From: an uncultured Collinsella sp.
GTDB lineage: Bacteria > Actinomycetota > Coriobacteriia > Coriobacteriales > Coriobacteriaceae
NCBI GenBank assembly: GCA_900541785.1
Contig: UQKY01000003.1
Coordinates: 7,462 to 71,461, forward strand
Direction: 5' to 3'
DNA: 64,000 nucleotides
Of the stretch, positions 9,261 to 59,167 are shown one piece after another; position 1 is the stretch's first letter, and each line of letters opens with the position of its first letter. Made by a program: the position numbers and the translations under genes. The notes under the pieces were generated by a model. That model was not told the DNA's origin, did not search any database, and worked only from the letters and a program-made list of their open reading frames with translations.

Positions 9261-9516
9261 ACCAGTGATCCTCCTTTATGGATCTGTGCCGCCCCGTGTC
9301 GTTCCGGGCGGCGTCGTACAGATTTGCCCAGCCTGCGTAAACCGCGCAGCCGGACATGGCGTTCTATCTTATCGCACCCGCGTCGATGTGCCGCGAAAAA
9401 GTAGCTCTTGCCCAAAGACTTGACGGAGACGCAACAATTGACGCACCGTGGCCGTCGCCCAGGCTTGCGACGTGCGACAATGTGCCCCAATACAACTGCA
9501 CTCGGAAAGGCCCGCC

Positions 9517-10152: not shown

Positions 10153-10266
10153 CCGATCCGTCTAACAATTGAATCAGTCTGTCCTATAGTTTCCGAACAA
10201 TTTTGTCTTAGTGTTCTGAAACATACCCTTTGAGTGCTAGACTTTGCGCCGTCGAAGGGAACATAT

Positions 10267-11049
10267 ATGGATAAGCGAGATCTTGAGCAGCTGCTGAGCG
10301 ATGTTGCCGGCGGATCAGTCACCCCTGCCGACGCCCTCACGCGCATCCAGACGGCGCCAACCGCCGATCTGGGCTTTGCGCAGCTCGATCTTTCGCGCGG
10401 AGTGCGCCAGGGAGCCGGCGAGGTTGTCTACGGTGCCGGTAAAACCGCCGAGCAAATTGCCGCCATTATCAAAGCATTACTCGATGCAGACCAGGAGCGC
10501 ATCCTGGTCACACGCTTGGATGCCGAAAAAGCCGCGCGCACCGCTGAGCTTCTCGGCAACGACATTGACCTGGGATATGTCCCGGACGCCCAGCTCGCCC
10601 TCGTGGGTGGCAAGCCCTCCCCCACCGGCAACGGACGCATCGTCGTCGCCTGCGCCGGCACGAGCGACCTGCCCGTCGCCGAAGAGGCGGCACTGACGGC
10701 CGAGTTCTACGGCAACGAGGTCGATCGCCTCTACGACGTAGGTGTCGCCGGCCTGCACCGCCTGCTCGCTCATGCCGAGGAACTTGCCCAGGCGCAGGTG
10801 ATCATTGCCGTCGCCGGCATGGAGGGCGCGTTGGCGAGCGTTATCGGCGGCCTGGTGAGCTGTCCGGTCATCGCCGTCCCCACCAGCGTGGGCTATGGCG
10901 CAAGCTTTGGCGGCGTAGCCGCGCTGCTCGCCATGCTCAACTCCTGCGCCAGCGGCGTTTCGGTTGTCAACATCGACAACGGCTTTGGTGCCGCCTACCA
11001 GGCAAGTCTTATCAATCATCTGAGCGCTGGCACGCCCTGCGCCCGTTAA
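10267..11049 (+). CDS. larB: LarB, pyridinium-3,5-biscarboxylic acid mononucleotide synthase (PurE-like)
   Basis: N-terminal LarB-specific region plus a PurE-like fold: VVACAGTSDLPVAEEA...IIAVAGMEGALASVIGGLVSCPVIAVPTSVGYG. Shine-Dalgarno GAAGGGA lies upstream of the ATG at 10267. Confidence 0.8.
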   Translation: MDKRDLEQLLSDVAGGSVTPADALTRIQTAPTADLGFAQLDLSRGVRQGAGEVVYGAGKTAEQIAAIIKALLDADQERILVTRLDAEKAARTAELLGNDIDLGYVPDAQLALVGGKPSPTGNGRIVVACAGTSDLPVAEEAALTAEFYGNEVDRLYDVGVAGLHRLLAHAEELAQAQVIIAVAGMEGALASVIGGLVSCPVIAVPTSVGYGASFGGVAALLAMLNSCASGVSVVNIDNGFGAAYQASLINHLSAGTPCAR

Positions 11050-11059
11050 GGAGCATTCC

Positions 11060-11977
11060 ATGTCCAACCATCAGCACACGCTTATCATCGACGGCACCTC
11101 GGGCATCAGCGGCGACATGACCGTCGCGGCCCTGCTCGACCTGGGCGCCAGCAAGGAGCACCTGCGCGAACAGCTCGCCACGCTGCCGATCGACGGCTTT
11201 GAGATTGCCGTTACACGCGTAAACAAGCATGGCATCGACGCCTGCGACTTTGACGTTCAGCTGGCAGAGGAGCTCGAGAACCATGATCACGACATGGCCT
11301 GGCTCTACGGCAACGAAGCAGCTGGCGAGCACACGCACGAGCATGAGCATCACCATCATGATCATGGCGGACACGAACACGAGCACTGCCACGAGCATGA
11401 CCATGAGGGCCACGGTCATGGCCACGAGGACCATCACCACACCCACCACCATCATCACCGCTCGCTAGCCGACGTCACGGAAATTATCGAGAATTCGCAG
11501 CTAAGCGATGGCGCCAAGCGACGCGCGCTCGCCATCTTTACCGCGCTCGCCGCCGCCGAGGCCAAGGCTCACGGCAAAACGCCCGAGACCGTCATGTTCC
11601 ACGAGGTAGGCGCCATCGATTCCATCGTTGACATCTGTTCAGTCGCCATCTGCCTCGATGACCTGGGTATCGAGGACATCGTGGTCGAGTCGCTCTCCGA
11701 GGGTCACGGCACCATCAACTGTGCCCACGGCCTTATGCCCATCCCGGTGCCCGCCGTCGTCAACCTATGCCAAGCAGGCAATATCGCCCTCACGCCTGCA
11801 CCGGTCGCCGGCGAGCTCGTGACGCCCACGGGCGCCGCCATCGTCACCGCGCTGCGCACGTCCGAGCATCTGCCGGCCTGCTACCGCATCGAGGCCGTCG
11901 GCTACGGCGCCGGTAAGCGCCCCTACGAGGGCTGCTCCGGCACGCTCCGTTGCCTGCTTGTTCACGTGGATGCATAG
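11060..11977 (+). CDS. larC: LarC N-terminal (LarC1-like) nickel-insertion protein with a His-rich segment; C-terminal CTP-binding domain absent
   Basis: DUF111 start MSNHQHTLIIDGTSGISGDMTVAALLDLG, followed by a roughly 45-aa His/Glu-rich metal-binding tract (HTHEHEHHHHDHGGHEHEHCHEHDHEGHGHGHEDHHHTHHHHH). It stops at 305 aa, directly overlapping the TetR gene. Confidence 0.75.
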   Translation: MSNHQHTLIIDGTSGISGDMTVAALLDLGASKEHLREQLATLPIDGFEIAVTRVNKHGIDACDFDVQLAEELENHDHDMAWLYGNEAAGEHTHEHEHHHHDHGGHEHEHCHEHDHEGHGHGHEDHHHTHHHHHRSLADVTEIIENSQLSDGAKRRALAIFTALAAAEAKAHGKTPETVMFHEVGAIDSIVDICSVAICLDDLGIEDIVVESLSEGHGTINCAHGLMPIPVPAVVNLCQAGNIALTPAPVAGELVTPTGAAIVTALRTSEHLPACYRIEAVGYGAGKRPYEGCSGTLRCLLVHVDA

Positions 11978-11979
11978 CC

Positions 11980-12519
11980 ATGGATGCCCGCAAAATCAAA
12001 AGCCGCGCCGCTATTGTCACGGCGTTTTCCGAGCTCCTTCGCGAGGAGGACTACGGCAAGATCACCGTCGGCGACATCATCGCGCGCGCTCACGTAGGCC
12101 GCGCGACATTCTACGGCCTCTTTAAGAGCAAAGACGACCTACTATCCGAGCTCGTGAGCGACATCTGCGCCCACGCCCTCGACGACGATGGCACACCACT
12201 CGACGACCCACTCGTGCAGGTCGAGCATATCCTCAACAATCTCTGGGAGTGTCGCCAGGGCGTTCGAGCGCTGGTAGCCGGCGCCGGCTCACGCGTCTTC
12301 GCCGACTGCCTACGCAAGACCATCATGTCGCGCGCAGCCGAAACCGTCCCTACCGACCCAAACGGCCCCGCCGCCACCATGAATCGCAGCTTCCTACTAC
12401 ACCACATAGCCTCGAGCTTCGTAGGAATGGTCCAATGGTGGGCCTGGCACAACTTCGAAGCCCCAAAAGAGGACGTAGCCAAAGACTACCTATCAGCCAT
12501 AAAACCCCTCTTCACCTAA
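11980..12519 (+). CDS. TetR/AcrR-family transcriptional regulator
   Basis: HTH ITVGDIIARAHVGRATFYGLFKSKDDLL. About 180 aa, mostly helical. Confidence 0.8.
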   Translation: MDARKIKSRAAIVTAFSELLREEDYGKITVGDIIARAHVGRATFYGLFKSKDDLLSELVSDICAHALDDDGTPLDDPLVQVEHILNNLWECRQGVRALVAGAGSRVFADCLRKTIMSRAAETVPTDPNGPAATMNRSFLLHHIASSFVGMVQWWAWHNFEAPKEDVAKDYLSAIKPLFT

Positions 12520-12688
12520 ATAAGTAGCTCATCCCAAAGCATCGCCCCAACCCAGGCCGCCACGCATCCCAAAGTGCCGCTCGCGTTTCAACGCCCCCAA
12601 CAGCAACAAGCCCCTCCCATCCAAATCCAAATTCAGATTTATATGTTGGGTTGCTTGCTCGAGCGCAGCAAAGACCCCGCAGCTGGCC

Positions 12689-12799
12689 GCATGGGGTAAC
12701 TTCCCAGCGCATTCCGCAGGACGCAAAAAGGCTCGCCGCACGAAGTGCGCAGCGAGCCTTTTTGCATGTCCGAGGACGCGCTGGGAAGTTACCCCATGC
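12689..12799. repeat. About 110-bp palindromic repeat element, solo copy
   Basis: Outer 22-bp perfect inverted repeat gcatggggtaacttcccagcgc / gcgctgggaagttaccccatgc encloses a conserved core attccgcaggacgcaaaaaggctcgccgcacgaagtgcgcagcgagcctttttgcatgtccgaggac. The same core occurs at 15734-15852. Confidence 0.7.
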
Positions 12800-12827
12800 G
12801 GCCAGCGGACAACTATGTAGCCTTGGA

Positions 12828-13559
12828 CTAGAACATGCCCAAGAAACCGTGCACAAACAGCGCGGCCAGAGCGGCGCCGACAAACGGCGCGATGCCAGGA
12901 ACAAGCAGGCCATACTTCCAGTTGTTGTCAGCCTTGTTCTTGATCGGCAGCACCTGATAGGCCATGCGAGGACCAAGGTCACGAGCCTGGTTCATGGCGA
13001 AGCCGGTGATGCCGCCCATGCCCATGCCAACGGCCCAAACGATCAGACCGACGCAGATAGCGAGCATCAGAACGTTCTCGCCAGCGCGGCTAGCGGCAGC
13101 AAGGATGGCGCTGATGAACACAAAGGTGCAGATAGCCTCGCAGAAGAAGTTGCGCGCATAGTTCGTGCCCTCGGTGGTGGGGTTGGTCGAGAAGATGTTG
13201 CGCTGGGCAACGGGGTCGATGACACCATCGGAAGCCTTGAACTCATCGGCATACATCAACCACGCGATTACGGCGCCCACAAAGCCGCCGAGCATATCGG
13301 CAACCATGAAGGGGATGCAGCTGCTCCACGGCACCAGGCCGACGATGCACTGGGCAAGCACCATGGCGGGGTTCATGCACACGGCGCCGCCAAAGATAAA
13401 CAGGGCGACCGAGATGCCGAAAGACCAAGTGGTGATGGCAAACATATGACCAGAGCCCTGATACTTGGTGCCCTTGAGCACGGTATCGCAGTGTACACCC
13501 ACGCCAAAGATGATCATGAGGGCCGTTGCGCCGAATTCGCAAAGGAGTTTGGTAAGCAT
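12828..13559 (-). CDS. MIP-family aquaglyceroporin (LarD-like lactic acid/glycerol channel)
   Basis: 243 aa with six TM helices. The first NPA motif (CMNPAMV) is present, and the second motif reads NQARDLGPR. It sits inside the lar cluster where LarD is found in Lactobacillus plantarum. Confidence 0.85.
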   Translation of the reverse strand: MLTKLLCEFGATALMIIFGVGVHCDTVLKGTKYQGSGHMFAITTWSFGISVALFIFGGAVCMNPAMVLAQCIVGLVPWSSCIPFMVADMLGGFVGAVIAWLMYADEFKASDGVIDPVAQRNIFSTNPTTEGTNYARNFFCEAICTFVFISAILAAASRAGENVLMLAICVGLIVWAVGMGMGGITGFAMNQARDLGPRMAYQVLPIKNKADNNWKYGLLVPGIAPFVGAALAALFVHGFLGMF

Positions 13560-13608
13560 AAAACCTTATCTTTCTTGTCGGTTATAAACGATTCGTTTAG
13601 GCCGCACG

Positions 13609-14886
13609 CTAGTGCTGCGCGACGACAACGCCCAGGCCATCGGGAATGACGGCCACCTTGGCGTCAGCACCCTTCATCTCAAAGGCGAGCTTGAGCGCCT
13701 CCTCGATAGTGTTGACCGGCGTCATGTGCATATCCTTGAGCATCTGGTGATCGCACAGGTCGGTGACCATAATCACGGGATGATGTGCCAGGATGCGAGC
13801 GAAAATCTGGCTCGTCCACTGGTCGGGCAGGGTCTCGTCCTTAGGACGATCGATGCAGGCGCGCTCAAACTCCGCCGGGTCGTTGTCGGCGATGTTGTGA
13901 TAGAAGCCCTCGCCGCCGTGACCGTCGGCACAACCGGCGACATCGATAATCACGCCGCCCTCGGGAAGTGTGGCCTCGGCAGCGCACATGCCCTTCACGG
14001 CCTGGTAGATGTTCTGATCGAGCGGGTAGCCGCCGTTGGTGGTGATGGCGATCTCGCACTCGACGGGCTCAACGCCGGCAAGGCTCTTCACGAACTCGCA
14101 GCCAGCCTCGTGTGCCTTGTGAATGTCGCCGGCAAAGGAGCCGATGACCTCGTGCTTGCCGTTGAGCACAACGTTAAGCACAAAGGCAAGGTGAGCCATC
14201 TCGGCAGCGGCAAACATGTCCTCGCTCACGTGGTTGTGGCACAGGTTGCCGGCACGCGAATGAGAATCGTTCACAAACTGACCGTTGTGGTTGTACATGA
14301 TGGTCTTGTAGCTGGCGATGCCAGGCAGGACGGACTTGCGGCTACCAGAGAAACCGGCAAAGAAGTGCGGCTCAATGAAGCCCTCGGCAAGCAGCAGATC
14401 GCAATCGACGGCAATCTTGTTGATGATGCACTCGCCACCAGAAGGCAGGGTGCCGATCTTTTTCATCATGCTGTCGTCAGTCGCGACGTGCATAACGATT
14501 TCCTCGTTGGCAACGATCTCCTCGCCGTACTTGTTGACGAGCTCCTCGTGCGTCGACGGACGATGCATACCCGTAGCAACCAGAATGCGAACGCGCGCTT
14601 CAGGCGCAGCAGAGTGGATGTGATGCAGCAGAATAGGCATCGTCACACGCGAGGGAACGGGACGCGTATGGTCGGAGCTAATGATGACGATATCCTTCTT
14701 GCCAGCACAGAGCTCCTCGAGCGAAGGCGAGCCGTAAGGGTTGGCAAGTGACTCCTCCACCAGCTCTTCCTGCGATTTCGTGGTCTTAAACTCGTTTTGA
14801 TGACCTTCCATCACACCTGCAAAGTTCTTATCCTCGAGCTCCAGATGCAACGTCTTGTGGTCAAACGGCAGTTCACATTCAAACAA
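13609..14886 (-). CDS. larA: LarA, nickel-pincer-dependent lactate racemase (DUF2088 family)
   Basis: Conserved LVATGMHRPSTHEE and ITTNGGYPLDQNIYQAVKGM segments match LarA. The ORF extends to 15123, but the likely start is a TTG at about 14886 with Shine-Dalgarno GGAAGAGGG (start uncertain). Confidence 0.75.
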   Translation of the reverse strand: MFECELPFDHKTLHLELEDKNFAGVMEGHQNEFKTTKSQEELVEESLANPYGSPSLEELCAGKKDIVIISSDHTRPVPSRVTMPILLHHIHSAAPEARVRILVATGMHRPSTHEELVNKYGEEIVANEEIVMHVATDDSMMKKIGTLPSGGECIINKIAVDCDLLLAEGFIEPHFFAGFSGSRKSVLPGIASYKTIMYNHNGQFVNDSHSRAGNLCHNHVSEDMFAAAEMAHLAFVLNVVLNGKHEVIGSFAGDIHKAHEAGCEFVKSLAGVEPVECEIAITTNGGYPLDQNIYQAVKGMCAAEATLPEGGVIIDVAGCADGHGGEGFYHNIADNDPAEFERACIDRPKDETLPDQWTSQIFARILAHHPVIMVTDLCDHQMLKDMHMTPVNTIEEALKLAFEMKGADAKVAVIPDGLGVVVAQH

Positions 14887-15475
14887 TGACGAGCGCCCTC
14901 TTCCTTTCAACTGACACACTAGATAAACCGTTGGAAGGATACGCCGCTCACCGAAAAACACCACCGTCCACCGAGTCATTAACACAACGTTCATATTTGA
15001 CCCACAACAAAACGGCCGCGATCCCAAACGGGACCGCAGCCGCCTGTAAAAGACACAATAGACAGGATGACTTACGCAGCCTCGAGGCAAACATCTACCC
15101 CGAGATGTACGCATGTAAGCCATTTTGCATAAATGCGTTAATATATTGCATAAAATGGTGCATGGATTTCAAACCGTAACAGGGTAGTACCCTCCGGAGC
15201 GTGCATTTTTGCGAGTATTCAGCATCGCGGGATAAGATTTTGGTGTCAAAAGTCTTTCAAAAGGTAGATAGTCCTCATGACTCGTCCCATCTGGATAGCA
15301 TACGGCGAGAAACCAGCCGTATACGGGCATCGCCAAGGCCCAATTGTCGTGCAAAAGCATCAACAAAGGCAGCGAAAGCCGGCTATGGCCTTATGCATCA
15401 ATCTTTGGCTGCTGAAAACTCCGTTTTTTGCACGTCGCCCCAAGCACCACCCTCACCCAGCGGCTGATCCGCCAA

Positions 15476-15870
15476 AGGTCGGACATCGCAGGGCCCGCCA
15501 TTAGTTTACTTTTAGGCACACTCCATAGGACGCAAGAAGCCCTCTCCGCACTCCACATTAGGCGCGAAGCGCACTTTATTTTCATCAGCTTTAATCCCCG
15601 AAGACCGAGGACGAAGGGACCCGATGGGTTTCCCTCTGAATGCATTCCGCAGCACGAAGCCCTTTCCAAGCGCGCGAAGCGCGCCATTATTTCCCCAGCA
15701 AGTAATCCACCGAAGACCGGACATCGTAGGGGCGGCCGTATGTTTTCTTTCCGGCGCATTCCGCAGGACGCAAGAAGCCCTCGCCGCACGAAGTGCGCAG
15801 CGAGGGCTTCTTGCATGTCCGAGGACGCGCCGGAAAGAAAACATACGGCGGCCCCGGACAACGACTACAG
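15476..15870. repeat. Tandem array of three roughly 115-125-bp units of the same palindromic element
   Basis: Unit boundaries ...ccgaa|gaccg(g). Units A (15476-15602) and B (15603-15714) are degenerate; unit C (15715-15856) is an intact hairpin with a 23-bp outer stem ggccgtatgttttctttccggcgc / gcgccggaaagaaaacatacggc. A covarying inner stem gcaagaagccctcg...cgagggcttcttgc is present. Confidence 0.7.
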
Positions 15871-23392: not shown

Positions 23393-25582
23393 CTAGATTA
23401 ATTTAGTACTCTCCAGCTTTTCGATGATCCAGTCGTTGGCTTTGATGACCGGGCGGCGGAAGACGACGCCCAGGGCCAGCGACGGAATCAGATAGCTCGC
23501 CAGAATGCCCAACTCAACCCAGTACTCCATATGGTAGGCACCGGCCATGGCGGCGTGCATGGCGTTGATGCCGTGGGTAAACGGCAGGAACGGGTAGATC
23601 GCCTGGAACACGGGGCCGGTCATCTCGATGGGGAACGTACCGCCCGAACCGCCGACCTGCATGACCAGCAGCACGACGGCGAGGGCCTTACCGATATCTC
23701 CAAACGATACCGTAAGCGTGTAGACGATATTGGAGAACACGAGGCTCGCGACCCAGCCGGCAAGCACAAACTGCAGGGGGTTGTCGCACTGAATGCCAAA
23801 GAACAGGATGTCGCCCGCACACACGAGCGTTGCCTGCAGCAGAGCCAGACCGCCAAAGAACAGGTAACGACCCAGATAGATCTCGTGCAGGCGTACGGGG
23901 ATGAGCTCGTTGATAAGCTCATCGTCAACCGAGACCTTCATCATGGCCGCTAGTACGATCGAGCCGACCCATAGCGACAGAATCGTGTAGAACGGCGCCA
24001 TGGCCGAACCGTAGTTGCGGATTGGATAGACCGGCTTACGGTCGAGTGCGACAGGGCCGGAAAGCGACACGGCCAGACCCTCGGGATCATTGCCGATCAT
24101 CGTCTTGATCGTAGCGAGGTCATCCGACATCAAGGCGCCGTCGAGCTCGTCCTTAAACGCACTGATCTTGTCCGACGCCTCACCCAGCTGATCGGAAGCC
24201 TTGTTGACCAGCTTTGCAGCCTTGGAGAGACCCTTTGCCAGCGAACCGGATGCGTCGGTCAGGCCGGCAACAGCACTATCCAGGTCGCCCGAGATACCCT
24301 TGAGCGAATCCAAAACGCCCGAAATAGTCTTCTTGAGCTCCTTGGCCTTGACCGAGAACATAGAGTCGTAGTCAATCTTGGCGCCCGAGATACCAGCCTT
24401 GGCATCCGCGATTGCCTGATCGACCTCGGCACGCGATTTGTTAACCTCTGTCATACTCTTCGTGAGCGACGTCGCGATATTCGTCAGCTCATTGGCATTG
24501 TTGCGGTACTCCGTCGCGGTTTTGTCAAGCTCAGCAGCCGCGTCCTCAAGCCCTGCCTTGAGCTTATCGTTACTCACCTGGCCAGCAAGACTGCGGAGCT
24601 TATCGGCCGTAGCATCAATCTCGTCGGCACGTGTATTGAGCGACGCTGCGCCATCGTTGAGCTGAGACACCGTAAGATCGACATGCTGGTTTGCAGCGTC
24701 GAATGCCTTTGCGAGCTCGGTAGAAACGTTATCGAACGAACCCGCGCTCCCATCAATAGCGGCATCAATCGCATCGCTGGCAGACTTGAGCGCCTGCTCG
24801 GAATCGGCAATACCGCTCTCGGCATGCTGCATGAGCTGCTTCACCGACTCCTCGGTCGATCCGGACTGCTTGAGCATACCGCCCGCCGACGTCAGCGAAT
24901 CGGACGTGGAGCTCAAAATGCCCGCAAGCGACGTTGCGCTAGCCTGAATGTCCTGCAAGTCCTGGACCGAATCGCCGAGTGTCGAGGACAGGTTGGCGAT
25001 AAAGTTGCTCACTTGGTCGGTGCTCATGTAATCGAGCAGGCTGGACACCGTCTTAAGACCGATGCTCGTAATGGTCTCGGTAAAAGTTTCGTTAACCTGG
25101 CTCTGAACGGCGCTCGAACCCTTCTCGGTCACGATCTGCGCAATGGCGTTGGCCTTCTGGTTCTCGTAAAACTCGATATCGGCGTGTTTCACGTCGGTCG
25201 AGAAAAGCGTCATCATGTCAGCGCTAAACGTTTTGGGGATAACGACGGCAGCATAGTACGCGCCCGACTTAACGCCCTCGATAGCCTTTTCGCGATTGTT
25301 GAGCACAACCCAATCGAAGCTCTCGTTGCCGCGTAGGGTGGCGGTCACGTTTTCGCCCACGTTAACCTCGACGGGGATCAAATCGCTCTCGTAACCCTCA
25401 TCGGTGTTGACCACGGCGATCTTAAGATTGCCGGTGTTGCCGTACGGATCCCAGCTGCCGGCGATGTTAAACCACGCGTACAGACACGGTACGATAATGA
25501 GGCCCATCACGACAACCAAGCCGATCACGGAGCGAGACACGTTTTGGACATCGCGCTTAAACAGATGCAGGATGTTCTTCAT
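23393..25582 (-). CDS. YhgE/Pip domain membrane protein (paralog 2)
   Basis: N-terminal TM followed by the YhgE/Pip N-domain (CLYAWFNIAGSWDPYGNTGNLKIAVVNTDEG...AAVVIPKTFSADMM). A long Ala/Ser/Thr-rich helical ectodomain is followed by a C-terminal polytopic YhgE/Pip domain. The ATG abuts the TAA of the upstream paralog. Confidence 0.8.
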   Translation of the reverse strand: MKNILHLFKRDVQNVSRSVIGLVVVMGLIIVPCLYAWFNIAGSWDPYGNTGNLKIAVVNTDEGYESDLIPVEVNVGENVTATLRGNESFDWVVLNNREKAIEGVKSGAYYAAVVIPKTFSADMMTLFSTDVKHADIEFYENQKANAIAQIVTEKGSSAVQSQVNETFTETITSIGLKTVSSLLDYMSTDQVSNFIANLSSTLGDSVQDLQDIQASATSLAGILSSTSDSLTSAGGMLKQSGSTEESVKQLMQHAESGIADSEQALKSASDAIDAAIDGSAGSFDNVSTELAKAFDAANQHVDLTVSQLNDGAASLNTRADEIDATADKLRSLAGQVSNDKLKAGLEDAAAELDKTATEYRNNANELTNIATSLTKSMTEVNKSRAEVDQAIADAKAGISGAKIDYDSMFSVKAKELKKTISGVLDSLKGISGDLDSAVAGLTDASGSLAKGLSKAAKLVNKASDQLGEASDKISAFKDELDGALMSDDLATIKTMIGNDPEGLAVSLSGPVALDRKPVYPIRNYGSAMAPFYTILSLWVGSIVLAAMMKVSVDDELINELIPVRLHEIYLGRYLFFGGLALLQATLVCAGDILFFGIQCDNPLQFVLAGWVASLVFSNIVYTLTVSFGDIGKALAVVLLVMQVGGSGGTFPIEMTGPVFQAIYPFLPFTHGINAMHAAMAGAYHMEYWVELGILASYLIPSLALGVVFRRPVIKANDWIIEKLESTKLI

Positions 25583-28363
25583 TTATGCCTCACCTCCTTT
25601 GGAGTGCTTGCCAAGCGGGGTGGTATCTCCATCATTTGTGGCTGTGCTGTCGCTGCCCTGAGATTTATGGTGCGAGCCTATATGCGGCAAGCGGCCCGTG
25701 GACTGATCGCCACCCTTGGCATCACGCTCGCTGGCGTTGAGGCCAAACATGTGGCGGGCGGCAGGAATGGCGGCCGTGTGTTCGCGCATCTCGCGACGCA
25801 GGTCCTCATCCGAAAGCGCCGAGATGCGCATCTGGGTATTGAGGCTCGCGCGGATATATTCGATATTGATAAGCCAGCCGCAGATGGCAATAACCGAGAT
25901 GATCCAAATGACAAGCAGGATGATCTTGCCGTTATTGTCGATATCGAGAACCGTCGACAGGACAAAGAGCAGGACCTGAACGCCCACCACGGCGGCAAAA
26001 CCGCCCTTGATGTAGTACGGGTAGCGATGTTCAAAGGCGACCGCATGATCGAGCAGTTCGCGACGGTACGAATCGGAATCGAGCATGACACGCATGGCCG
26101 TGCGCAGCGAGTAGCGCTGGCGCGGCAGGTCGTTGGACTCGCAAATCATCATACCGGTCGTGGAAAGCTGTTTATCAAAGAGCAGGTTAAGGTTGAGCAG
26201 CAGCGGACGCAGCTGCAGGCCGATAAAGAGCGCCACGATCAAGAACACACCCAGAATGCACAGGTTAAACAGGTAGTTGAACGAATACATGCCGCCGACC
26301 GTCTCGCGCAGCAGATTGATGCCGTAGGTAAAGGGCAGCAGCGGGTGCAGCCACTGGAAGAAGCCGGGCATCATCTCGATGGGGTACATGCCCGACGAAC
26401 CCGGGATCTGCACGATGACAAGAATGACGCCGATTGCCTTGCCGATATGCTTAAACGTGGTGGACAGCGCATAGATGATATTGACGTAGGTGAACGAAAT
26501 GGCGATGCCGCCCAGCACGAACAGCAGCGGACTGACGCACTGCACGCCAATCACCAGATCACCTACCGTAACGATGATGGCCTGCAACGCGCCCAGGATC
26601 ACCAGGAGCAACCAGCGGCCAAAGTAGCCCTGACGCGCGGTAAAGCTGCCAACGCCTTCGCGATCGACCTCGAGCTTGTAAATGGCGATGAGCACGTAGC
26701 CGCCCACCCAAAGCGCCAGATTGGTGTAGAAAGGAGCAATGCCCGAGCCGAAGCTCTTAACCGGATAGATCGACTTGGAGGTCAGCTCGACCGGAGATGC
26801 CATGAAGTCAGCAACGTCATCGACGTCGACGCCCATCAGGTCGGCCAGCTCGCCCATGGACTCGGAGGTCTGTAGCGCCGCGATGTCGTTGGCGGCGGTT
26901 GCGAGCTTGTCCTGGACCTTGGCAAGCGAGGAATCGGTCTGGGACAGCGTGGTCTTGGCCTGACCGAGCGTAGCGTTGAGTTGCGAAAGTGTACCGCGCG
27001 CACTTGCAATAGTAGGCGTGAGGCCAGACACGATTCCCGTCAGATCACCCGAGACGGCGGCAAATGAATCAAGCGCGCTCGAGGCCTTCGGCAGCGCGTT
27101 TTGACCCAGGTCCGTCTGGGCCTGGCCAAGGTTGGTCGCACCGGTCTGGATTGCGTTATTGATAGCGTCGCTGGCACCCGAGACAGCCGCGGCGTCATTC
27201 GCCATGGCGCTCGACTGTGCAGACAGACCGTCCTTGATGCTCTGAAGCTTTTCATTCTGCTTGCGGAGCAAATCGATGGTCGATACAATGCGCGCGTCAA
27301 TTTCCTTGGAACCTGTCGACGTGTCATTGACGAGAATTTCCAAGTGCCCGATAACGGCCTTATTGTGGTCGATCGTCGCTTGGAGAGACTCGAGCGAGTT
27401 GTCGATGCGGGTGGTCGTAGATGTGATCGTGCCCGTCAGCTTGCCAATCGCAGCGTTCGCGGAGGCTGACGTCTTGGTGAGCGCAAGGCTGCCTTCCGAG
27501 AGCGCCTTGGAGAGCGAGGCGACAGAGTTACCCGCCGTGGCGCGAGCCTCGCCCAGCAGGTCGTTGCCCTGGGAGATCGCCTGCGTCAGCGACGGCGCCT
27601 GACCCTGCAGACCGGCAAGTGCTGCATCTGCCGAGGCAATGGAACCACTCGTCTTATCGATGGCGGCATTCATGTCGTCAATCGAATCGCGCACTTCGCC
27701 CAACGTATCAGAAGCCTCTGATACCGAACCGGCCAACGAATCCTGAGCCTGGGTTGCCTTGTCCTTTAAATCGACTCCGGCATCCTTGGCAATGCTGGCA
27801 ACGGTCTCGCCCACCGTGGAGACAAATTCCGAGTTGATCTGCTCCTCGATGGTGCTTGCGCCGGTGTCGGTAACCTTGGGCGCAATAGCGCTCTTCTTCT
27901 CATTGACGTAGTACGTAAGCTTGGGCTGATGGTAGTTGCCGTCGAGCATCGAAACCAGGTTATCCGAGAAGTTCTTGGGGATTACGATGGCCGCATAGTA
28001 CTCACCGCTCTCGACGCCCTCCTTGGCATCGGCCGCCGAGTCAACGAAGGTCCAGCCCAGCTGATCGTTCTCCTTGAGTTGATCGACGACCTGGTCGCCC
28101 GCGTTGAGCTCGCCCACCAAGTCGTTTTGGGTGCCCCGATCGTTGTTGGCGATGGCAATCTTGATACCCTGGGTGTTTCCGTACGGATCCCAGTTAGCCA
28201 CGATGTTGTACCAGGCATACAGCGAGGGAATAACGCACACGCCAAGGGTAACCACCAAGGCGACGGGGTTCACGAGCAGTCGCTTAATGTCGCGCTTAAA
28301 TATCGCAAAGGACACCTTTGCATTGGATAGTTTGCTGCCGAGACTCACGCTTGGGCCATCCAT
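25583..28363 (-). CDS. YhgE/Pip domain membrane protein (paralog 1) with about 200-aa C-terminal extension
   Basis: Same architecture as paralog 2 (SLYAWYNIVANWDPYGNTQGIKIAIANNDRG...AAIVIPKNFSDNL). It carries an extra C-terminal region with two further predicted TM helices and a charged tail rich in Ser/Gly/His/Lys. Confidence 0.8.
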   Translation of the reverse strand: MDGPSVSLGSKLSNAKVSFAIFKRDIKRLLVNPVALVVTLGVCVIPSLYAWYNIVANWDPYGNTQGIKIAIANNDRGTQNDLVGELNAGDQVVDQLKENDQLGWTFVDSAADAKEGVESGEYYAAIVIPKNFSDNLVSMLDGNYHQPKLTYYVNEKKSAIAPKVTDTGASTIEEQINSEFVSTVGETVASIAKDAGVDLKDKATQAQDSLAGSVSEASDTLGEVRDSIDDMNAAIDKTSGSIASADAALAGLQGQAPSLTQAISQGNDLLGEARATAGNSVASLSKALSEGSLALTKTSASANAAIGKLTGTITSTTTRIDNSLESLQATIDHNKAVIGHLEILVNDTSTGSKEIDARIVSTIDLLRKQNEKLQSIKDGLSAQSSAMANDAAAVSGASDAINNAIQTGATNLGQAQTDLGQNALPKASSALDSFAAVSGDLTGIVSGLTPTIASARGTLSQLNATLGQAKTTLSQTDSSLAKVQDKLATAANDIAALQTSESMGELADLMGVDVDDVADFMASPVELTSKSIYPVKSFGSGIAPFYTNLALWVGGYVLIAIYKLEVDREGVGSFTARQGYFGRWLLLVILGALQAIIVTVGDLVIGVQCVSPLLFVLGGIAISFTYVNIIYALSTTFKHIGKAIGVILVIVQIPGSSGMYPIEMMPGFFQWLHPLLPFTYGINLLRETVGGMYSFNYLFNLCILGVFLIVALFIGLQLRPLLLNLNLLFDKQLSTTGMMICESNDLPRQRYSLRTAMRVMLDSDSYRRELLDHAVAFEHRYPYYIKGGFAAVVGVQVLLFVLSTVLDIDNNGKIILLVIWIISVIAICGWLINIEYIRASLNTQMRISALSDEDLRREMREHTAAIPAARHMFGLNASERDAKGGDQSTGRLPHIGSHHKSQGSDSTATNDGDTTPLGKHSKGGEA

Positions 28364-28677
28364 CCTGTCGTTGAATCAAATCGTACTATCGACAACCATT
28401 GTACGTAGGCGCTTTAGCGTCTCAGAGCACAATGGTATTGAGTTTTGCGGGTAGCAATATACTACGAAGACGAATTAACGTACAGTTGTACAGTATCTTT
28501 AATTTCAGCATGTCACAAAACCACAACCCGCACAAATTAGCAATTCAAATAGCATCGGGGACGTTCTTAAACGACTAGTCAAACAAAAACGCCCCCAATG
28601 ACTACTTAGGACCACGGCAACGTCGATGTTTTGGCAATGCCAGCGAGCGGGCGCCAGAGCGAACAAATTGGCATGAA

Positions 28678-40877: not shown

Positions 40878-43319
40878 CTACCCCAGCGAGCGGTTGAGGG
40901 AGCCGAGCTCGTCGTTGCCCATGGTGCGCCACATTTGGAAGATGCAACCGCGTGCCAGGAAAAAGAAGCCGTTGTCGACCAGTTGAACAGCGGCATCTGC
41001 CAGCTGATTCGTCACGGCGGACACTGGCGGCAGCTCGAGTCCAGCCTTGCGAATGGTCTCGACCGCTTCCTCGAACGTCGGAGGCTCGCTGACGCCCATC
41101 TCGTTCATAAGGCCCTGCATTTCTTCCAGCGCGCTGCTGCCCGACTCCTCGCCACGTGGCACCAGACGGTAACAAGCCAGCGCAAGGTCGAGCTGATCGC
41201 AATTCCAATAGGCAAACGCCAGGCGATAGAACAGGTAGCCGATTGCAGAGCGATCGCTGGCAATACGTAGGCCGTGGCGCGCCACCTCGATAATCTCGTC
41301 AAAGCGCTCCAGACGCGCAAGAACGTTGATGAGCGCAAAGTGCGATTGCATGGACGAGCGCGCCAGATCGTAAAGATGGCGCACCTCGGGCAGCGCTCGT
41401 TCAAAGTCCTCTTGCTCGACGTAAAAGCTGCAGATCTCGTGTTGGGCAAAGTACAGCGCATCGGGCGCACGAAGGATTCGCACAGAGCGGTCTTCTTCCA
41501 ACACCGGTAGCACCATGCGCACCAGCTGGTTATCGCAAAACTGCGTTTGAACCGGGCCCGTCGCCAAAAGCTCGGCAACGGCGCACTTAGCCTCCAACTC
41601 CTCAACAAGACGGGAAAAGCCTTCAAAAGCACCTGTACGGTCGACTTTTGCCTGCTCGCGCAATTCAACAACACGGGCCACGTATGGGTCGTCGTCCTCT
41701 TCCATGACCTCCAACTCGTCAGCCGTATCGGCAAGCAGCAAATCGCGCAGCGCCGGCGGAAGCGTGCGATGGTCATCACGCGGACGAGCATGAACCTCCG
41801 CAGGTTCAATCGTCTCCGGAGCAGTTGACTCATACGCCTCAAGTACACGCTTGCACGGCATATCGTCCATGTCCATGCTCTCAAGATCCTTGGCGACAGG
41901 CACGCAATCGGCCAGATAGGCCGCGCGCCCAAAGAAATACGTTGCGACAACGCGCTCGCCCTGCTCACTGTCGGGAGCAGCAATCTGCACATAGCAGCGC
42001 GTGATGCAGGTGCCCGCGGCAAAACACGCTGCCGCAAGCGTGAGTGCCACGCGCGCATCGTGCTCCGCGGCCCAGATCGCGCGCGTGTCCTCGTCCAGCT
42101 CGCGCCAGGCGTCATCCTGAGCGTCGTATTCACGTTGCGGCATGGCATCAACGACAGACTGCCCAAACCGAACGAGCATAATCCCCTCGGCAACGTTTGC
42201 CCGATAGGTATAGTCGAGCCGCGTGACCACGTTGAGCGCCTCAACGATTCGCGCAAAACGGGTGCGCACGTCCCACTCGCCGCCCGGCTGGCAAGCCACC
42301 GTACCCGGCTTGCCCCACGGGTTATCGCTCGAAGCCGTATCGAGCAGTCGGGGAACATCGTTGGTCGTCTTGGCGATATGCCACGCATCAAAGAGCGCGC
42401 AGCCCTCAAGGCTCGGCGAGGATGCCGCAGGGACCAATCCGGCCCCGATGCGCTCAAGGATGCCGGAGAGGCGGTTGAGACGGCACTCGATGGCAAGCAG
42501 CATGTCAATCTCGTCCTGGTCCAACAGGCTACGATCAAAATTGAGATAGAAAATCTTTGAGCGATCAATGCGAGCCAGGCTCATCTCGGACTTGGCAGCG
42601 ATGGTGCGCAGGCGGGGCAAGTCAATTTCGCTCATAAGGGCGGCCGCATAACGCTCGATACCGCTCGGATTCTCGGCATGGTCAACGCGGTAGAGCAGCG
42701 TCTCGATAGCATCGGGGAGCGGTGCCGTGTTAAAGCCCAAAAACACCTCGACCGGCTCGGGCAACTTTACGAGCTTGATCTTGTCGACAACGTTTTGCAT
42801 ACCCTCGTCGAGTCCGCCGGCGTCCGCCGTGTTCACAATAGCGCTTTCGGAGTTGGCAAATATCACGTAGCGCAAGAACATCGAGGCCATGAACTCGCCG
42901 TAAGGAAGGGCGCGGGTCGAATTCCATGTCTCGTGGTCGGACTGCTCGCGCATGGGGCCTTCGGGAGAGCCGGCAGTTTGCGCACACGCGCGCATTGCAC
43001 CGTTGGCTTCCCTTACCATAATCTCACCAATACTGGAATCCGACTCGTCAAGGACCAGTTCCATGTCGGGATCGTTGGGCAGCGGAGCCTCGCTGACGGG
43101 GCGGTCCACCTTGTACACCTCACCCGAAACGCTTACGTAGCCCAAAAGCGACACATGACTTTTGCCAACGAATTCGACGACATAACAAGATTCAAGCTGA
43201 TCCTCGCCAAAGAGTTTCCAGACCACGCCATATGAGCGTCCCGCAGGCTGCTCGGGCATCGCCGGAAAGCGCTTCTTGGGATCGAGAAACCTGAGCTTGT
43301 ATGTCGGACGCTCTGCCAC
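40878..43319 (-). CDS. Large uncharacterised cytoplasmic protein with C-terminal TPR-like repeats
   Basis: 813 aa with a GTG start. No recognisable catalytic motifs and no TM segments. The C-terminal roughly 200 aa contain helical repeat units (LYDLARSSMQSHFALINVLARLERFDEIIEVARHGL..., AIGYLFYRLAFAYWNCDQLDLALACYRL). Confidence 0.55.
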   Translation of the reverse strand: MAERPTYKLRFLDPKKRFPAMPEQPAGRSYGVVWKLFGEDQLESCYVVEFVGKSHVSLLGYVSVSGEVYKVDRPVSEAPLPNDPDMELVLDESDSSIGEIMVREANGAMRACAQTAGSPEGPMREQSDHETWNSTRALPYGEFMASMFLRYVIFANSESAIVNTADAGGLDEGMQNVVDKIKLVKLPEPVEVFLGFNTAPLPDAIETLLYRVDHAENPSGIERYAAALMSEIDLPRLRTIAAKSEMSLARIDRSKIFYLNFDRSLLDQDEIDMLLAIECRLNRLSGILERIGAGLVPAASSPSLEGCALFDAWHIAKTTNDVPRLLDTASSDNPWGKPGTVACQPGGEWDVRTRFARIVEALNVVTRLDYTYRANVAEGIMLVRFGQSVVDAMPQREYDAQDDAWRELDEDTRAIWAAEHDARVALTLAAACFAAGTCITRCYVQIAAPDSEQGERVVATYFFGRAAYLADCVPVAKDLESMDMDDMPCKRVLEAYESTAPETIEPAEVHARPRDDHRTLPPALRDLLLADTADELEVMEEDDDPYVARVVELREQAKVDRTGAFEGFSRLVEELEAKCAVAELLATGPVQTQFCDNQLVRMVLPVLEEDRSVRILRAPDALYFAQHEICSFYVEQEDFERALPEVRHLYDLARSSMQSHFALINVLARLERFDEIIEVARHGLRIASDRSAIGYLFYRLAFAYWNCDQLDLALACYRLVPRGEESGSSALEEMQGLMNEMGVSEPPTFEEAVETIRKAGLELPPVSAVTNQLADAAVQLVDNGFFFLARGCIFQMWRTMGNDELGSLNRSLG

Positions 43320-43504
43320 GAAGTATCACCCTGATCGGTCGCTTGAAGAAGGAGTGGTCGCGAATAAGTCGCGACATCTACTCGGAATCTTACACGAGTC
43401 GACAGGAAATCGTCCGCTTCACGCTCGCGCCTCGACCGAGGTTCGAATCCATGCAGCGGCGACATAAAAGAAAAGCCCCCGTTGCCGGGAGCTTTAATCT
43501 CAAA

Positions 43505-57625: not shown

Positions 57626-57701
57626 AAAGCCGCCCCGCTTGCGGCGAGTGCCTGGTCGACGGCGGGCCGCAAGCCCTTGCGTCACCCGCAGCAGGCAGCG
57701 C

Positions 57702-58214
57702 CTAATCCCATGCAGCAATCCATGAATCATAATCTCCCTCCAGCCATTCGGGACGCGATCGATACGAGACGTCGACCTTGAGCTCGACATAGCCGCCCTC
57801 GCCCGCACTGCCCATGGCCTGCACAAATGCACCGATCACGGGCAGCGGCTTAACCTCTCCGGCAACAGACACGGACGAAACGCCGCCGGCACCGGCCCGC
57901 CCCAACTCGATATCCCACGACAGCGGCCCGCCGGCATGAAAAATCGAGACGTTGGGCACCGCGGCAAGCCTGCGGCGAGTGAACTCCTTAAGGTCATCGT
58001 CGTCCTCCACCGTCGTCGTGGTCATAAGCCGTGCGGTCTCGGCGGCAGCGGACTCCATGACCGCACGCGTATAGAGCAGGCATACCGGCTGCAACGCGAG
58101 CAAGATAAGCGTCAAAAACGTCGGCAGCAAAAAGGCGGCCTCGACCGTAGACTGCGCCCGATCCTCGCACGCGATATCAATACAGAGCGATGTCCTTGGC
58201 ACCCGTCGCGGCAT
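57702..58214 (-). CDS. TadE-like pseudopilin
   Basis: ...EDRAQSTVEAAFLLPTFLTLILLALQPVCLLYTRAVM is a TadE-type N-terminus. The start is ATG 58214 or GTG 58202, slightly overlapping flp. Confidence 0.6.
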   Translation of the reverse strand: MPRRVPRTSLCIDIACEDRAQSTVEAAFLLPTFLTLILLALQPVCLLYTRAVMESAAAETARLMTTTTVEDDDDLKEFTRRRLAAVPNVSIFHAGGPLSWDIELGRAGAGGVSSVSVAGEVKPLPVIGAFVQAMGSAGEGGYVELKVDVSYRSRPEWLEGDYDSWIAAWD

Positions 58215-58395
58215 CGATAACCGACGATGGGGCGACGCCATGAGACGCCGCCCGCTCGGCCAGGGCCGCCAAGCGCCCATCGGTGCCAGCGCGCCAAAGC
58301 CCCGCAATCGCCAGCACAATCGACAACAGCGCCACGGTGACGATGGCGTATTCGACGGTCGACTGAGCAGATTCCTCACGCAGGACATCATGCAT
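58177..58395 (-). CDS. flp: Flp-family type IVb pilin (72 aa)
   Basis: MHDVLREESAQSTVEYAIVTVALLSIVLAIAGLW: a Flp prepilin leader plus the cleavage motif (A/G)-x-x-x-EY and a hydrophobic helix. A strong Shine-Dalgarno AAAGGAGGGG sits 7 nt upstream. Confidence 0.7.
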   Translation of the reverse strand: MHDVLREESAQSTVEYAIVTVALLSIVLAIAGLWRAGTDGRLAALAERAASHGVAPSSVIDAATGAKDIALY

Positions 58396-58396
58396 T

Positions 58397-58960
58397 TCAC
58401 GACCCCTCCTTTGACTCCGTTGTTTGCGGAACCAGACGCACGGCACGCAGGCGGCACGAGGCATCGCCGGCATCCGCGGCAACCGTCACCATGTCGACCC
58501 AGCCTCGCCCATCGCGCACGATGGCGCCCCATACGTTGCCCTTAATATCGAGATAGCCGCTCAGGGCGAGTTGGGCCGTGGGCACCTCGCGGTAGGCGCG
58601 CAACAGGTCTGCCGCCGCCTCGGTCATCGGCCGGTCCTCGGACCATGCGAGTCGAACCGCGATCGCGTTGTCTGCAGACGGCTCCGTCGCGCTGGCGGCC
58701 CGCTCGTCGAGCGCCTGCAAAAAGGTCCGAGCCGTGACAGCGGCATTCTGACCGCCCGTATCTTGCGCGCCTTCCACTTGTGACACCGCCGCCGAGCCCG
58801 ATTCCAAATCGGCAGTAGCGCCTGGACGCTGCTGCCGCGCAACACCCAGCCCCCAAAACGCCACCGCTATTGCCACGAGCAAACAGACGAGCACCAGCGG
58901 CGAACCAACAGGCCGCCTGCCTCCTACAGGCTGTTGATGCCGTCTTTGATCGCGTTCCAT
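58397..58960 (-). CDS. Tad-locus membrane-anchored protein of unknown function
   Basis: 187 aa with a single N-terminal TM (LVLVCLLVAIAVAFWGLGVA) and then a soluble domain. It lies between the two flp genes. The start may be downstream of 58960. Confidence 0.4.
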   Translation of the reverse strand: MERDQRRHQQPVGGRRPVGSPLVLVCLLVAIAVAFWGLGVARQQRPGATADLESGSAAVSQVEGAQDTGGQNAAVTARTFLQALDERAASATEPSADNAIAVRLAWSEDRPMTEAAADLLRAYREVPTAQLALSGYLDIKGNVWGAIVRDGRGWVDMVTVAADAGDASCRLRAVRLVPQTTESKEGS

Positions 58961-59157: not shown

Positions 59158-59167
59158 GTATTCCTCC

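Follow-up and report, generated by a model that had tools for sequence, protein, structure and literature searches.

A conserved nickel-dependent lactate racemase locus of human-gut Collinsella without larE and without the CTP-binding domain of LarC

The window analysed here, a 64-kb stretch of Collinsella DNA, carries at positions 10267-14886 five genes of a lar cluster, namely larB, a larC gene reduced to its LarC1 domain, and tetR on the forward strand, and larD and larA on the reverse strand. Two of the four canonical lar functions (LarA, LarB, LarC and LarE) are missing from this locus. The identity of all five genes was established with curated Pfam and NCBIfam models. The gene order AspRS, HAD, larB, larC1, tetR, larD, larA, PEPC, in which the locus is flanked by a HAD hydrolase gene and a PEP carboxylase gene, is common to all 86 other Collinsella contigs examined (a set of 6 plus 80), and the protein clusters of the lar genes comprise from 13,891 to 26,068 members.

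The first gene, larB (10267..11049, forward strand), encodes a 260-aa protein of the AIRC fold, the NaAD C5-carboxylase/hydrolase, which scores 288 bits with the LarB equivalog model NF033503 (cut-off 175) and just 30 bits with the PurE model. The sequence-only reading had correctly recognized larB as present and intact, but had started it at GTG 10234, whereas the start is most likely ATG 10267. A candidate sigma-70-like promoter, CTAACA-17-TATAGT at 10162..10190 of the forward strand, lies in the 114-bp spacer between the HAD gene and larB; it is a consensus match only, and a weak one, because a single match was observed with 2.2 expected.

At the opposite end of the locus, larA (13609..14886, reverse strand) encodes a nickel-pincer-dependent lactate racemase of 425 aa with the Lar_N and LarA_C domains (PF09861, PF21113). 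Translation starts at TTG 14886, in accord with the end coordinate proposed earlier; the purine-rich sequence GGAAGAGGG preceding this codon is read as a putative ribosome-binding site, and the 456-aa larA gene call of other contigs is a 5' over-extension. Both catalytic histidines, the cofactor-binding lysine and the nickel-ligand histidine are conserved in the Collinsella proteins. In the alignment, the motifs of His108, His174, Lys184 and His200 of the canonical enzyme (numbering of PMC11770544) contain invariant residues, which in the LarA of the L. plantarum plasmid are H101, H170, K180 and H196. The adjacent larD gene (12828..13559, reverse strand) encodes an aquaglyceroporin-type D/L-lactic acid channel of 243 aa, a MIP-family protein that passes the LarD equivalog model NF043012 (419 bits, cut-off 390).

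It had been suggested that an orphan LarA could act on another substrate, and the LarA superfamily does include many specificities (PMC7583248, PMC11770544). However, the larA product reaches 602 bits with the lactate racemase equivalog NF033504 (cut-off 460) and only 340 bits with the malate racemase model (cut-off 500), other LarAH models scoring lower, and its gene is paired with that of an equivalog-level lactic acid channel. A different 2-hydroxyacid racemase or epimerase, with LarB and LarC1 in some other role, is thus quite improbable.

The larC gene (11060..11977, forward strand) encodes a 305-aa protein that consists of the domain for nickel binding and insertion and lacks CTP-binding LarC2, confirming that LarC, in full length a CTP-dependent nickel-pincer cyclometallase, is truncated to its N-terminal part. 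The protein covers only positions 1-234 of the 375 positions of PF01969 (E 1e-81) and scores 195 bits with the NCBIfam model nickel_LarC1 (cut-off 90), whereas neither the LarC2 model NF052512 nor positions 235-375 of PF01969 gave a match in it. Alignment with full-length LarC, in which it pairs with residues 4-280 of the 435 residues of the C. butyricum protein, places its end in the inter-domain linker. The C-terminus of about 12 residues, of the ...LRCLLVxxDA type, is common to 116 of 120 homologues among the matches listed. The His/Glu-rich tract that had been assigned to the C-terminal end lies instead inside LarC1, at residues 90-133 (11327..11458, forward strand; read from the sequence). 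It is the most variable segment of LarC1, differing in length between strains, and the main source of the 280-333 aa length range across Collinsella.

Examination of the LarC1 residues that mutagenesis has shown to be needed in Moorella thermoacetica LarC (PMC13510736) revealed both a His cluster and a conserved acidic pocket. Every critical residue checked is conserved: equivalents of D15, R71, E104, E119, D124, D128, E187, H53, H70, H108, H118 and H160 are retained. The His-patch residues H72 and H116 are changed to Ser and Met. In 81 Collinsella sequences, little or no variation is seen at the corresponding positions D19, R134, E167, E182, D187, D191, E252, H57, H133, H171, H181 and H223. 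Aligned to the LarC1 domain of M. thermoacetica (cryo-EM structures 12bi-12bl; PMC13510736) with an E-value of 1e-36, the Collinsella protein keeps the residues of the acidic pocket and, of the seven His-patch residues in the alignment, five. The M. thermoacetica protein is, however, a single chain, in which a LarC2 hexamer core organizes two LarC1 trimers, whereas the Collinsella protein stops within the linker.

In L. plantarum a programmed frameshift connects the larC1 and larC2 reading frames (PMC13510736), and a LarC2 domain could be hidden here in the same manner or by read-through. This is practically excluded: the larC1 stop codon TAG (11975-11977) is followed after 2 nt by the ATG of tetR at 11980, so that TetR is encoded where the continuation would lie, and no frame of the window has similarity to LarC2. 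The best tblastn match to the LarC2 region of a full-length LarC with 70% identity has an E-value of 0.09 and falls inside the aspS region. The tetR gene therefore abuts larC1 and, contrary to the sequence-only reading, does not overlap its end.

The tetR gene (11980..12519, forward strand), translationally coupled to larC1, encodes a TetR-family regulator of 179 aa (PF00440) whose match to TetR_C_8 is below threshold (22 bits, cut-off 26.1). Its presence had been considered unusual. However, a homologous tetR with 50-67% protein identity directly follows larC in all 14 closest Coriobacteriia relatives mapped (L009-L022) and in five further loci with complete clusters (L095, L097, L179-L181). 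Since the larC-tetR order is common to related Coriobacteriia, TetR is the native regulator of the lar clusters of this clade.

Between the convergent ends of tetR and larD lies a 125-bp palindromic element (12682..12806), a probable bidirectional terminator, with 58-nt arms of 83% complementarity and a folding energy of -109.7 kcal/mol (z -15.5). A second copy (15729..15855; 59-nt arms, 81% complementary) separates the region upstream of larA from the end of the PEP carboxylase gene. The two copies have an 18-mer core in common, which has three matches in the window (0.1 expected) and occurs at the same position as the first copy in many Collinsella loci.

LarE, an ATP-dependent sulfur insertase, is in most cases encoded together with larB and larC. 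The absence of larE from the window, noted previously, was confirmed by several searches. When LarC and LarE of C. butyricum and L. plantarum served as tblastn queries over the 64 kb, only noise resulted; the PP-loop motif SGGxDS is absent from all six frames; and Pfam scans of about 40 other ORFs in the window were negative for PP-loop ATPases, the Ni_insertion domain and cysteine desulfurases. Likewise, the flanks of the 86 other Collinsella contigs (sequenced up to 7-10 kb, often less) gave no match to LarE or LarC2, and no PP-loop ATPase passing TIGR00268 was found in these flanks or in the window. One genome per GTDB species was scanned with the LarC2 domain taken from the closest full-length LarC; matches came from Olsenella, Parolsenella, Atopobium-labelled and uncultured Coriobacteriaceae genomes and from one Collinsella-labelled genome only, where larE and a full-length larC sit at a different locus. 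The 129 proteins obtained when this domain was used in a protein search all belong to clusters of at most 70 members. Among the 120 matches listed for the LarE of relatives, with identity down to 45-47%, there was no abundant cluster, the largest of those listed (714 and 448 members) bearing Paratractidigestivibacter faecalis names. Relatives'-type larE and larC2 were thus not found elsewhere in Collinsella by these searches of GTDB species genomes and protein clusters, to which more distant or fused copies are invisible.

Comparison of gene order in related Coriobacteriia revealed the arrangement larE-larB-larC-tetR, with a full-length larC, in Paratractidigestivibacter, Olsenella and Parolsenella, in several cases with larD-larA alongside. 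In P. faecalis and other Atopobiaceae and Coriobacteriaceae (L021, L095, L179-L182) the genes have the same order and orientation as in Collinsella, larD and larA being convergent to larB, larC and tetR, and the identity of the products to those of the window is about 90% for LarA, about 92% for LarD, 68-74% for LarB, 62-66% for LarC1 and 65% for TetR. These relatives differ from Collinsella in having larE directly upstream of larB, a LarC of 464-547 aa with the LarC2 domain included, and an adjoining Opp/Nik-type ABC transporter, absent from the Collinsella locus. We infer from these comparisons that the Collinsella locus derives from such a Coriobacteriia cluster but lacks its larE and roughly 490 bp at the 3' end of larC. 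The ancestor would have had a larE-larB-larC-tetR / larD-larA cluster, from which larE and the part of larC coding for the linker and for CTP-binding LarC2 were presumably lost.

Such losses could indicate a degenerating pathway, as the sequence-only reading had proposed, since the locus lacks two of the four functions canonical for cofactor synthesis. Among the Collinsella loci holding the complete gene, however, the reading frames are intact in nearly every case: 80/80 for LarC1, 39/39 for LarA (residues 25-456 of the longer call), 44/45 for LarD, 64/66 for LarB and 71/73 for TetR. The dN/dS values are 0.099 for larC1, 0.022 for larA, 0.059 for larD, 0.147 (median 0.096) for larB and 0.095 for tetR. 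This range of 0.02-0.15, at a mean dS of 0.18-0.35, indicates purifying selection on all five genes; the housekeeping neighbours have values of 0.034 (AspRS) and 0.032 (PEPC). Because the layout is kept in 86 of 86 contigs, the frames are intact and under purifying selection, and the critical LarC1 residues, like the catalytic residues generally, are invariant or nearly so, a decaying remnant with non-functional remaining genes is highly improbable and already contradicted by the selection analysis.

LarA, LarB, LarC1 and LarD of L. plantarum belong to the same enzyme families as the Collinsella proteins, and its LarC1 (residues 1-271) is also a separate reading frame with the same domain boundary. 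However, larC2 overlaps larC1 in L. plantarum, whereas the Collinsella locus has no larC2. Similarly, larE accompanies the remaining lar genes in L. plantarum (directly after larC at the plasmid locus), and is lacking at the Collinsella locus. The L. plantarum regulator LarR is of the Crp/Fnr type, whereas the regulator of the Collinsella cluster is of the TetR type. In Garciella nitratireducens (L185) LarC is encoded by two genes in an adjacent larB-larC1-larC2 set, in contrast to Collinsella, where no larC2 partner gene was found by the searches described above. On a 51%-GC Firmicute contig (L183/L184), larC2 and larE form a stand-alone pair, with neither larB nor larC1 in the 5 kb around it. 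LarC1 and LarC2 thus occur as separate polypeptides, and split lar loci exist.

In keeping with one option of the sequence-only reading, we give about an even chance, the highest among the readings considered, to the supply of sulfur insertion and CTP-dependent activation in trans, by genes outside the window, which would most likely form a larC2/larE-type module not of the relatives' type. The unlinked module of L183/L184 shows that such modules are known in other bacteria and supports in-trans supply. Counted against it are the Collinsella LarC2 and LarE searches, which found no trans-acting genes, and the effect of altering the covalent LarC1-LarC2 linker of M. thermoacetica LarC, which cuts activity to <10% (PMC13510736).

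Alternatively, Collinsella may have no LarE or LarC2 at all and reach a nickel-pincer cofactor by a modified or abbreviated pathway. Thiolation would then fall to a non-orthologous sulfurtransferase, and stand-alone LarC1 would insert nickel with no activation by CTP, for example on an AMP-keeping dinucleotide intermediate. In agreement with this, the searches above found no relatives'-type larE or larC2 in Collinsella, yet purifying selection acts on LarB, LarC1 and LarA; in a further lineage of Coriobacteriia, LarB is fused to LarC1 and no LarC2 lies within 10 kb. The AMP-bearing analogue P2TAD is converted to cofactor by L. plantarum LarC (PMC13510736), and a nickel-pincer adenine dinucleotide cofactor has been reported (cited in PMC13524815). 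However, no Collinsella-specific changes of LarB were found at positions near-invariant in 19 relatives, giving no sign of loss of the hydrolase step; the searches would miss distant or fused homologues; and LarA is so similar to that of Paratractidigestivibacter, which has a full canonical lar set, that the same cofactor is expected. Moreover, no LarE-independent route is known. We regard such a route as doubtful, and consider it equally doubtful that the C. aerofaciens group makes an active nickel-pincer lactate racemase with LarB and stand-alone LarC1 alone, nickel being inserted in the absence of LarC2 (for instance into an intermediate retaining its adenylyl group) and sulfur by an enzyme with no relation to LarE.

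Finally, Collinsella could scavenge cofactor that neighbouring gut bacteria release, either finished or as a thiolated intermediate, many members of this dense anaerobic community having complete lar sets (e.g. in gut metagenome contigs). This is improbable: both LarB and LarC1 are conserved, and neither would be needed if the finished cofactor were imported; no transporter for such nucleotides is known, nor is one seen in the locus; and the cofactor is labile.

With in-trans supply, the Collinsella aerofaciens group would have here its functional lactate racemase locus, associated with TetR. Following the published pathway, LarB would convert NaAD to pyridinium-3,5-biscarboxylic acid mononucleotide, the sulfur insertase would turn this into the bis-thiocarboxylate, and nickel bound on the His cluster of LarC1 would be inserted in the acidic pocket. 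LarA with the resulting nickel-pincer cofactor would interconvert D- and L-lactate, which would pass through LarD, and TetR would control the locus. A common human-gut Collinsella thus has a well conserved nickel-dependent lactate racemase cluster, yet one without larE and the CTP-binding half of larC, and therefore the sulfur-insertion and CTP-binding steps are either encoded elsewhere in the genome or carried out by another route.

Listing of open reading frames combined with curated family models identified five genes in the lar locus of the window: larB (10267-11049, plus strand; NF033503, 288 bits, cut-off 175), a short larC of 305 aa (11060-11977, plus) that matches the LarC1 model only, a TetR-family gene (11980-12519, plus), and, on the minus strand, larD (12828-13559; NF043012, 419 bits, cut-off 390) and larA (13609-14886; NF033504, 602 bits, cut-off 460). 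The sequence-only reading had tetR overlapping the end of larC. In fact the two genes abut, the tetR ATG at 11980 beginning 2 nt after the larC1 stop codon TAG (11975-11977), and they are probably translationally coupled. On other contigs larA is called as a protein of 456 aa, with 31 additional codons at the 5' end (window 14887-14979, minus strand). In 10 of the 39 related loci this extension is frame-shifted relative to the remainder of the gene, which is 98-99% identical, and the true start is TTG 14886, preceded by the purine-rich GGAAGAGGG, a putative ribosome-binding site. By alignment, LarA retains both catalytic histidines, the cofactor lysine and the nickel-ligand histidine.

The short LarC covers only positions 1-234 of the 375 in the Pfam Ni_insertion profile, matches the NCBIfam LarC1 model, and leaves the separate LarC2 model unmatched. 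Its alignment with C. butyricum LarC covers residues 4-280 of 435, and it can also be aligned with LarC1 of the structurally solved M. thermoacetica enzyme. The latter has a 13-residue linker between LarC1 and LarC2 (PMC13510736), and the alignment places the Collinsella terminus within this linker, in agreement with the earlier claim that the protein ends after LarC1 and lacks LarC2. The His-rich tract, previously put at the end of LarC, is internal (LarC1 residues 90-133). Among the homologues listed, Collinsella LarC1 proteins are 280-333 aa long and vary mainly in this tract, and 116 of the 120 closest LarC homologues listed share a C-terminus of about 12 residues (…LRCLLVxxDA and close variants). 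An assembly artefact or strain-specific truncation was rejected, as this end recurs in those 116 proteins and the same stop in 80 of 80 metagenome loci. Four longer homologues (P0001, P0010, P0054 and P0098) were considered as possible LarC2-bearing forms, and turned out to be either read-throughs into tetR after a frameshift or proteins with the His-rich segment internally duplicated; P0001 (386 aa) has an 81-residue internal duplication spanning the tract, which could be genuine or an artefact of assembly.

The acidic pocket (D15, R71, E104, E119, D124, D128 and E187, Moorella numbering) and five histidines (53, 70, 108, 118 and 160) are invariant or near-invariant in 81 Collinsella LarC1 sequences, and substitution of these residues impaired the Moorella enzyme (PMC13510736). 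Two Collinsella-specific changes in LarC1, D69A and H72L, occur at positions near-invariant in 19 relatives; LarB has none at positions near-invariant among 19 relatives.

Outside larB and larC1, tblastn of the C. butyricum and L. plantarum LarC and LarE proteins against the window produced chance-level matches only, and the LarC2 part of P0122, the closest full-length LarC (70% identical over LarC1), found its best match in an unrelated gene (E-value 0.09). No frame of the window contains the SGGxDS PP-loop motif, and Pfam scans of about 40 other window ORFs detected no PP-loop ATPase, Ni_insertion domain or cysteine desulfurase, so that the reported absence of larE from the window holds by all three approaches. 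A LarC2 reached by programmed frameshift, or encoded in an unannotated ORF after larC1, was likewise rejected, since tetR follows at once and LarC2 similarity is found in no frame.

The NCBI-sourced LarC1 homologues bear Collinsella names. An identical LarC1 protein is present on contigs as long as 734 kb, and six contigs with this protein carry the genes for AspRS, a HAD hydrolase, larB, larC1, tetR, larD, larA and PEP carboxylase. A metagenome scan yielded 80 further loci (85-96% protein identity) with the same gene order to the contig limits and no match to LarE or LarC2 in their sequenced flanks (at most 7 kb, often much less). Counting only loci that hold the whole gene, and taking a single uninterrupted match as intact, LarC1 is uninterrupted in 80/80 loci, LarB in 64/66, TetR in 71/73, LarD in 44/45 and LarA residues 25-456 in 39/39, which bears out the view of larB and larA as intact. 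Pairwise Nei-Gojobori dN/dS (mean dS 0.14-0.35 over all eight genes) is 0.022 for LarA, 0.059 for LarD, 0.095 for TetR, 0.099 for LarC1 and 0.147 for LarB (median 0.096); the neighbouring AspRS, HAD and PEP carboxylase genes have 0.034, 0.054 and 0.032, respectively. The intact genes, low dN/dS and conserved functional residues demonstrate that the locus is kept by selection and is not decaying, contrary to the suggestion of a degenerating pathway. This lar locus, reduced yet under selection, is characteristic of a highly abundant genus of the gut; we found no published work on lar genes in Collinsella.

The LarC2 domain of P0122 was scanned against one genome per GTDB species by a translated search, which sees fusions and reports a sequence only where one of six 8-residue peptides is matched exactly. 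The best matches were in Olsenella uli, Parolsenella, an Atopobium-labelled genome and uncultured Coriobacteriaceae, as well as in some evidently mislabelled bins and one Collinsella-labelled genome. All 14 of the closest relatives mapped (one a 2-kb fragment only) carry, to the contig limits, larE, larB, a full-length larC with LarC1 and LarC2 in one frame, and tetR. In the comparison loci L021, L095 and L179-L182, Paratractidigestivibacter by source names, larE-larB-larC-tetR is followed by convergent larD and larA, and an Opp/Nik-type ABC transporter flanks the cluster in L095 and L179-L182; another lineage has larA, larD, larE, larB and full-length larC consecutively. Since tetR follows larC in all 14 mapped relatives, it is a native member of the lar cluster of this clade, and not the unusual regulator that it was first taken for. 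The Collinsella locus thus corresponds to the relatives' cluster minus larE (~740 bp) and the coding sequence for the linker and LarC2 (~490 bp, compared with L095), and lies in a different gene neighbourhood. The LarE of L021 (2698-3402) and its homologues in L095 and L179-L182 are short (about 200-250 aa); this type barely passes TIGR00268 (154 bits, cut-off 150). It has the motifs SGGVDS, CYYC and SYAC, its three cysteines suggesting an iron-sulfur rather than a sacrificial enzyme.

Compared with the Paratractidigestivibacter loci, LarA and LarD of the window are ~90% and ~92% identical, whereas LarB, LarC1 and TetR are 62-74% identical. Because synonymous divergence is similar for all genes (0.75-1.6, near saturation), this contrast mostly reflects different constraint, and a separate horizontal origin of larD-larA and larB-larC1-tetR (90% versus 65% identity) was rejected on the same ground, though not firmly.

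The converging transcription units meet at a near-perfect palindromic element of ~125 bp (12682-12806), a second copy of which (15729-15855) completes a pair bracketing larD-larA; weaker related stretches lie at 15532-15564 and 15642-15659. With arms of 58-59 nt and a folding energy of about -110 kcal/mol (z about -15), the element probably terminates both units and could represent either a bidirectional terminator or a small mobile element. Its 18-mer core recurs between tetR and larD in many other Collinsella loci, four of them with two copies, and the element was not seen in the loci from relatives. Neither of the two upstream regions contains a short palindrome that could serve as a shared TetR operator, and a riboswitch in the lar locus was rejected for want of an Rfam match there. 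The Rfam scan of the window recovered only three tRNAs and an aspS leader (RF02930, 77.6 bits; 9272-9355, minus strand) upstream of the aspartyl-tRNA synthetase gene. Elsewhere in the window, adjacent large membrane proteins of 729 and 930 aa with ABC-2 and DUF3533 domains (23396-28375, minus) resemble YhgE/Pip-type proteins. Three long ORFs have no Pfam match: 40881-43325 (minus, 815 aa), 55568-57835 (minus, 756 aa) and 58784-60751 (plus, 656 aa), the last two adjoining Tad-pilus-type genes at 57705-63814 (TadE-like, CpaF-type ATPase, ParA/CpaE-like protein).

That homologues undetectable in these searches supply both missing activities from another part of the genome is in our judgement an even chance. 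GTDB contains hundreds of Collinsella species, and the scan found a single Collinsella-labelled genome with larE and full-length larC, at a different locus. Queried with the P0122 LarC2 domain, the protein collection gave 129 proteins, and their clusters have 70 members at most; the lar-gene clusters of Collinsella have 13,891, 18,356 and 26,068 members, the largest being a 90%-identity cluster that mixes 260-aa LarB with 305-aa LarC1 and overstates the count of either. All 129 matches are at most 251 aa long and P0122 itself is missing, from which we infer length filtering, so that fusions would escape this search. With the relatives' LarE as query, the best 120 of 7,783 matches reach down to about 45-47% identity, bar one partial match at 87%; two LarE clusters at 94-95% among these 120 bear Paratractidigestivibacter faecalis names, and for most of the rest the source is not named. 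The LarE-like proteins P0459 (54%) and P0466 (49%) come from other Coriobacteriia, which carry MerR-larE-larB-larC clusters of their own; these families were assigned outside Collinsella because a FeoB fragment in comparison locus L089 is only 55% identical to Collinsella FeoB, and GC content and context also differ. Most high-GC candidates for a stand-alone LarC2 are fragments of full-length LarC, and one, P0279, is part of a larC gene that has been disrupted, in an unrelated metagenome-assembled genome. Taken together, the GTDB scan and the LarC2 and LarE searches make a relocated larE or larC2 of the relatives' type appear unlikely in Collinsella; a distant, xenologous or fused one is possible.

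Split lar systems do exist. In Garciella nitratireducens, larB, larC1 (278 aa) and larC2 (149 aa) are adjacent separate genes. In two contigs of a 51%-GC Firmicute (L183/L184, 5001-6388), a stand-alone larC2 (181 aa; NF052512, 152 bits) is followed after 2 nt by larE (279 aa; TIGR00268, 271 bits), the pair being flanked by ribonucleotide reductase and DHFR genes. Neither larB nor larC1 occurs within 5 kb, which makes the pair a mirror image of the Collinsella larB-larC1 locus. Against easy trans-complementation of LarC1 by LarC2 counts the Moorella enzyme, the activity of which fell below 10% once the covalent linker was altered (PMC13510736). A second natural LarC without LarC2 occurs in another Coriobacteriia lineage (L092, 10658-12007; also L093 and L094) as a 449-aa fusion of LarB with the LarC1 core (NF033503, 277 bits; nickel_LarC1, 137 bits), with no LarC2 within 10 kb; it adjoins a short LarE (214 aa), a MerR regulator and a 382-aa protein without family match.

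Following the published pathway (PMC13510736, PMC11796402, PMC13524815), LarB would carboxylate NaAD and release AMP, a sulfur insertase would make the bis-thiocarboxylate, and LarC1 would insert nickel; LarA would racemise lactate, LarD conduct it, and TetR regulate the locus. Alternatively, and rather improbably in our view, larE and LarC2 are truly absent and cofactor synthesis follows a non-canonical course. LarC2 would be dispensable if synthesis passed through an adenylylated intermediate; L. plantarum LarC converts an adenylylated analogue (PMC13510736), and a report of the cofactor in adenine-dinucleotide form is cited in PMC13524815. The probability that is left is shared by scavenging, another substrate for LarA, and loss of function. 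The initial observation of a cluster without larE and LarC2 stands, and its interpretation is supported in part.

In a very abundant human-gut genus, LarA, LarB and LarC1 have remained under strong selection long after the cluster lost larE and LarC2, and this locus bears on the balance of D- and L-lactate in the gut. According to current understanding, synthesis of the nickel-pincer cofactor requires LarE and the two halves of LarC. If the missing genes lie elsewhere, Collinsella would provide another split lar system and show that LarC1 and LarC2 can function as two proteins with distant genes. Should larE and LarC2 be absent altogether, the locus would point to an unknown sulfur insertase and CTP-independent nickel insertion, and would offer a natural minimal system for studying carbon-nickel bond formation.
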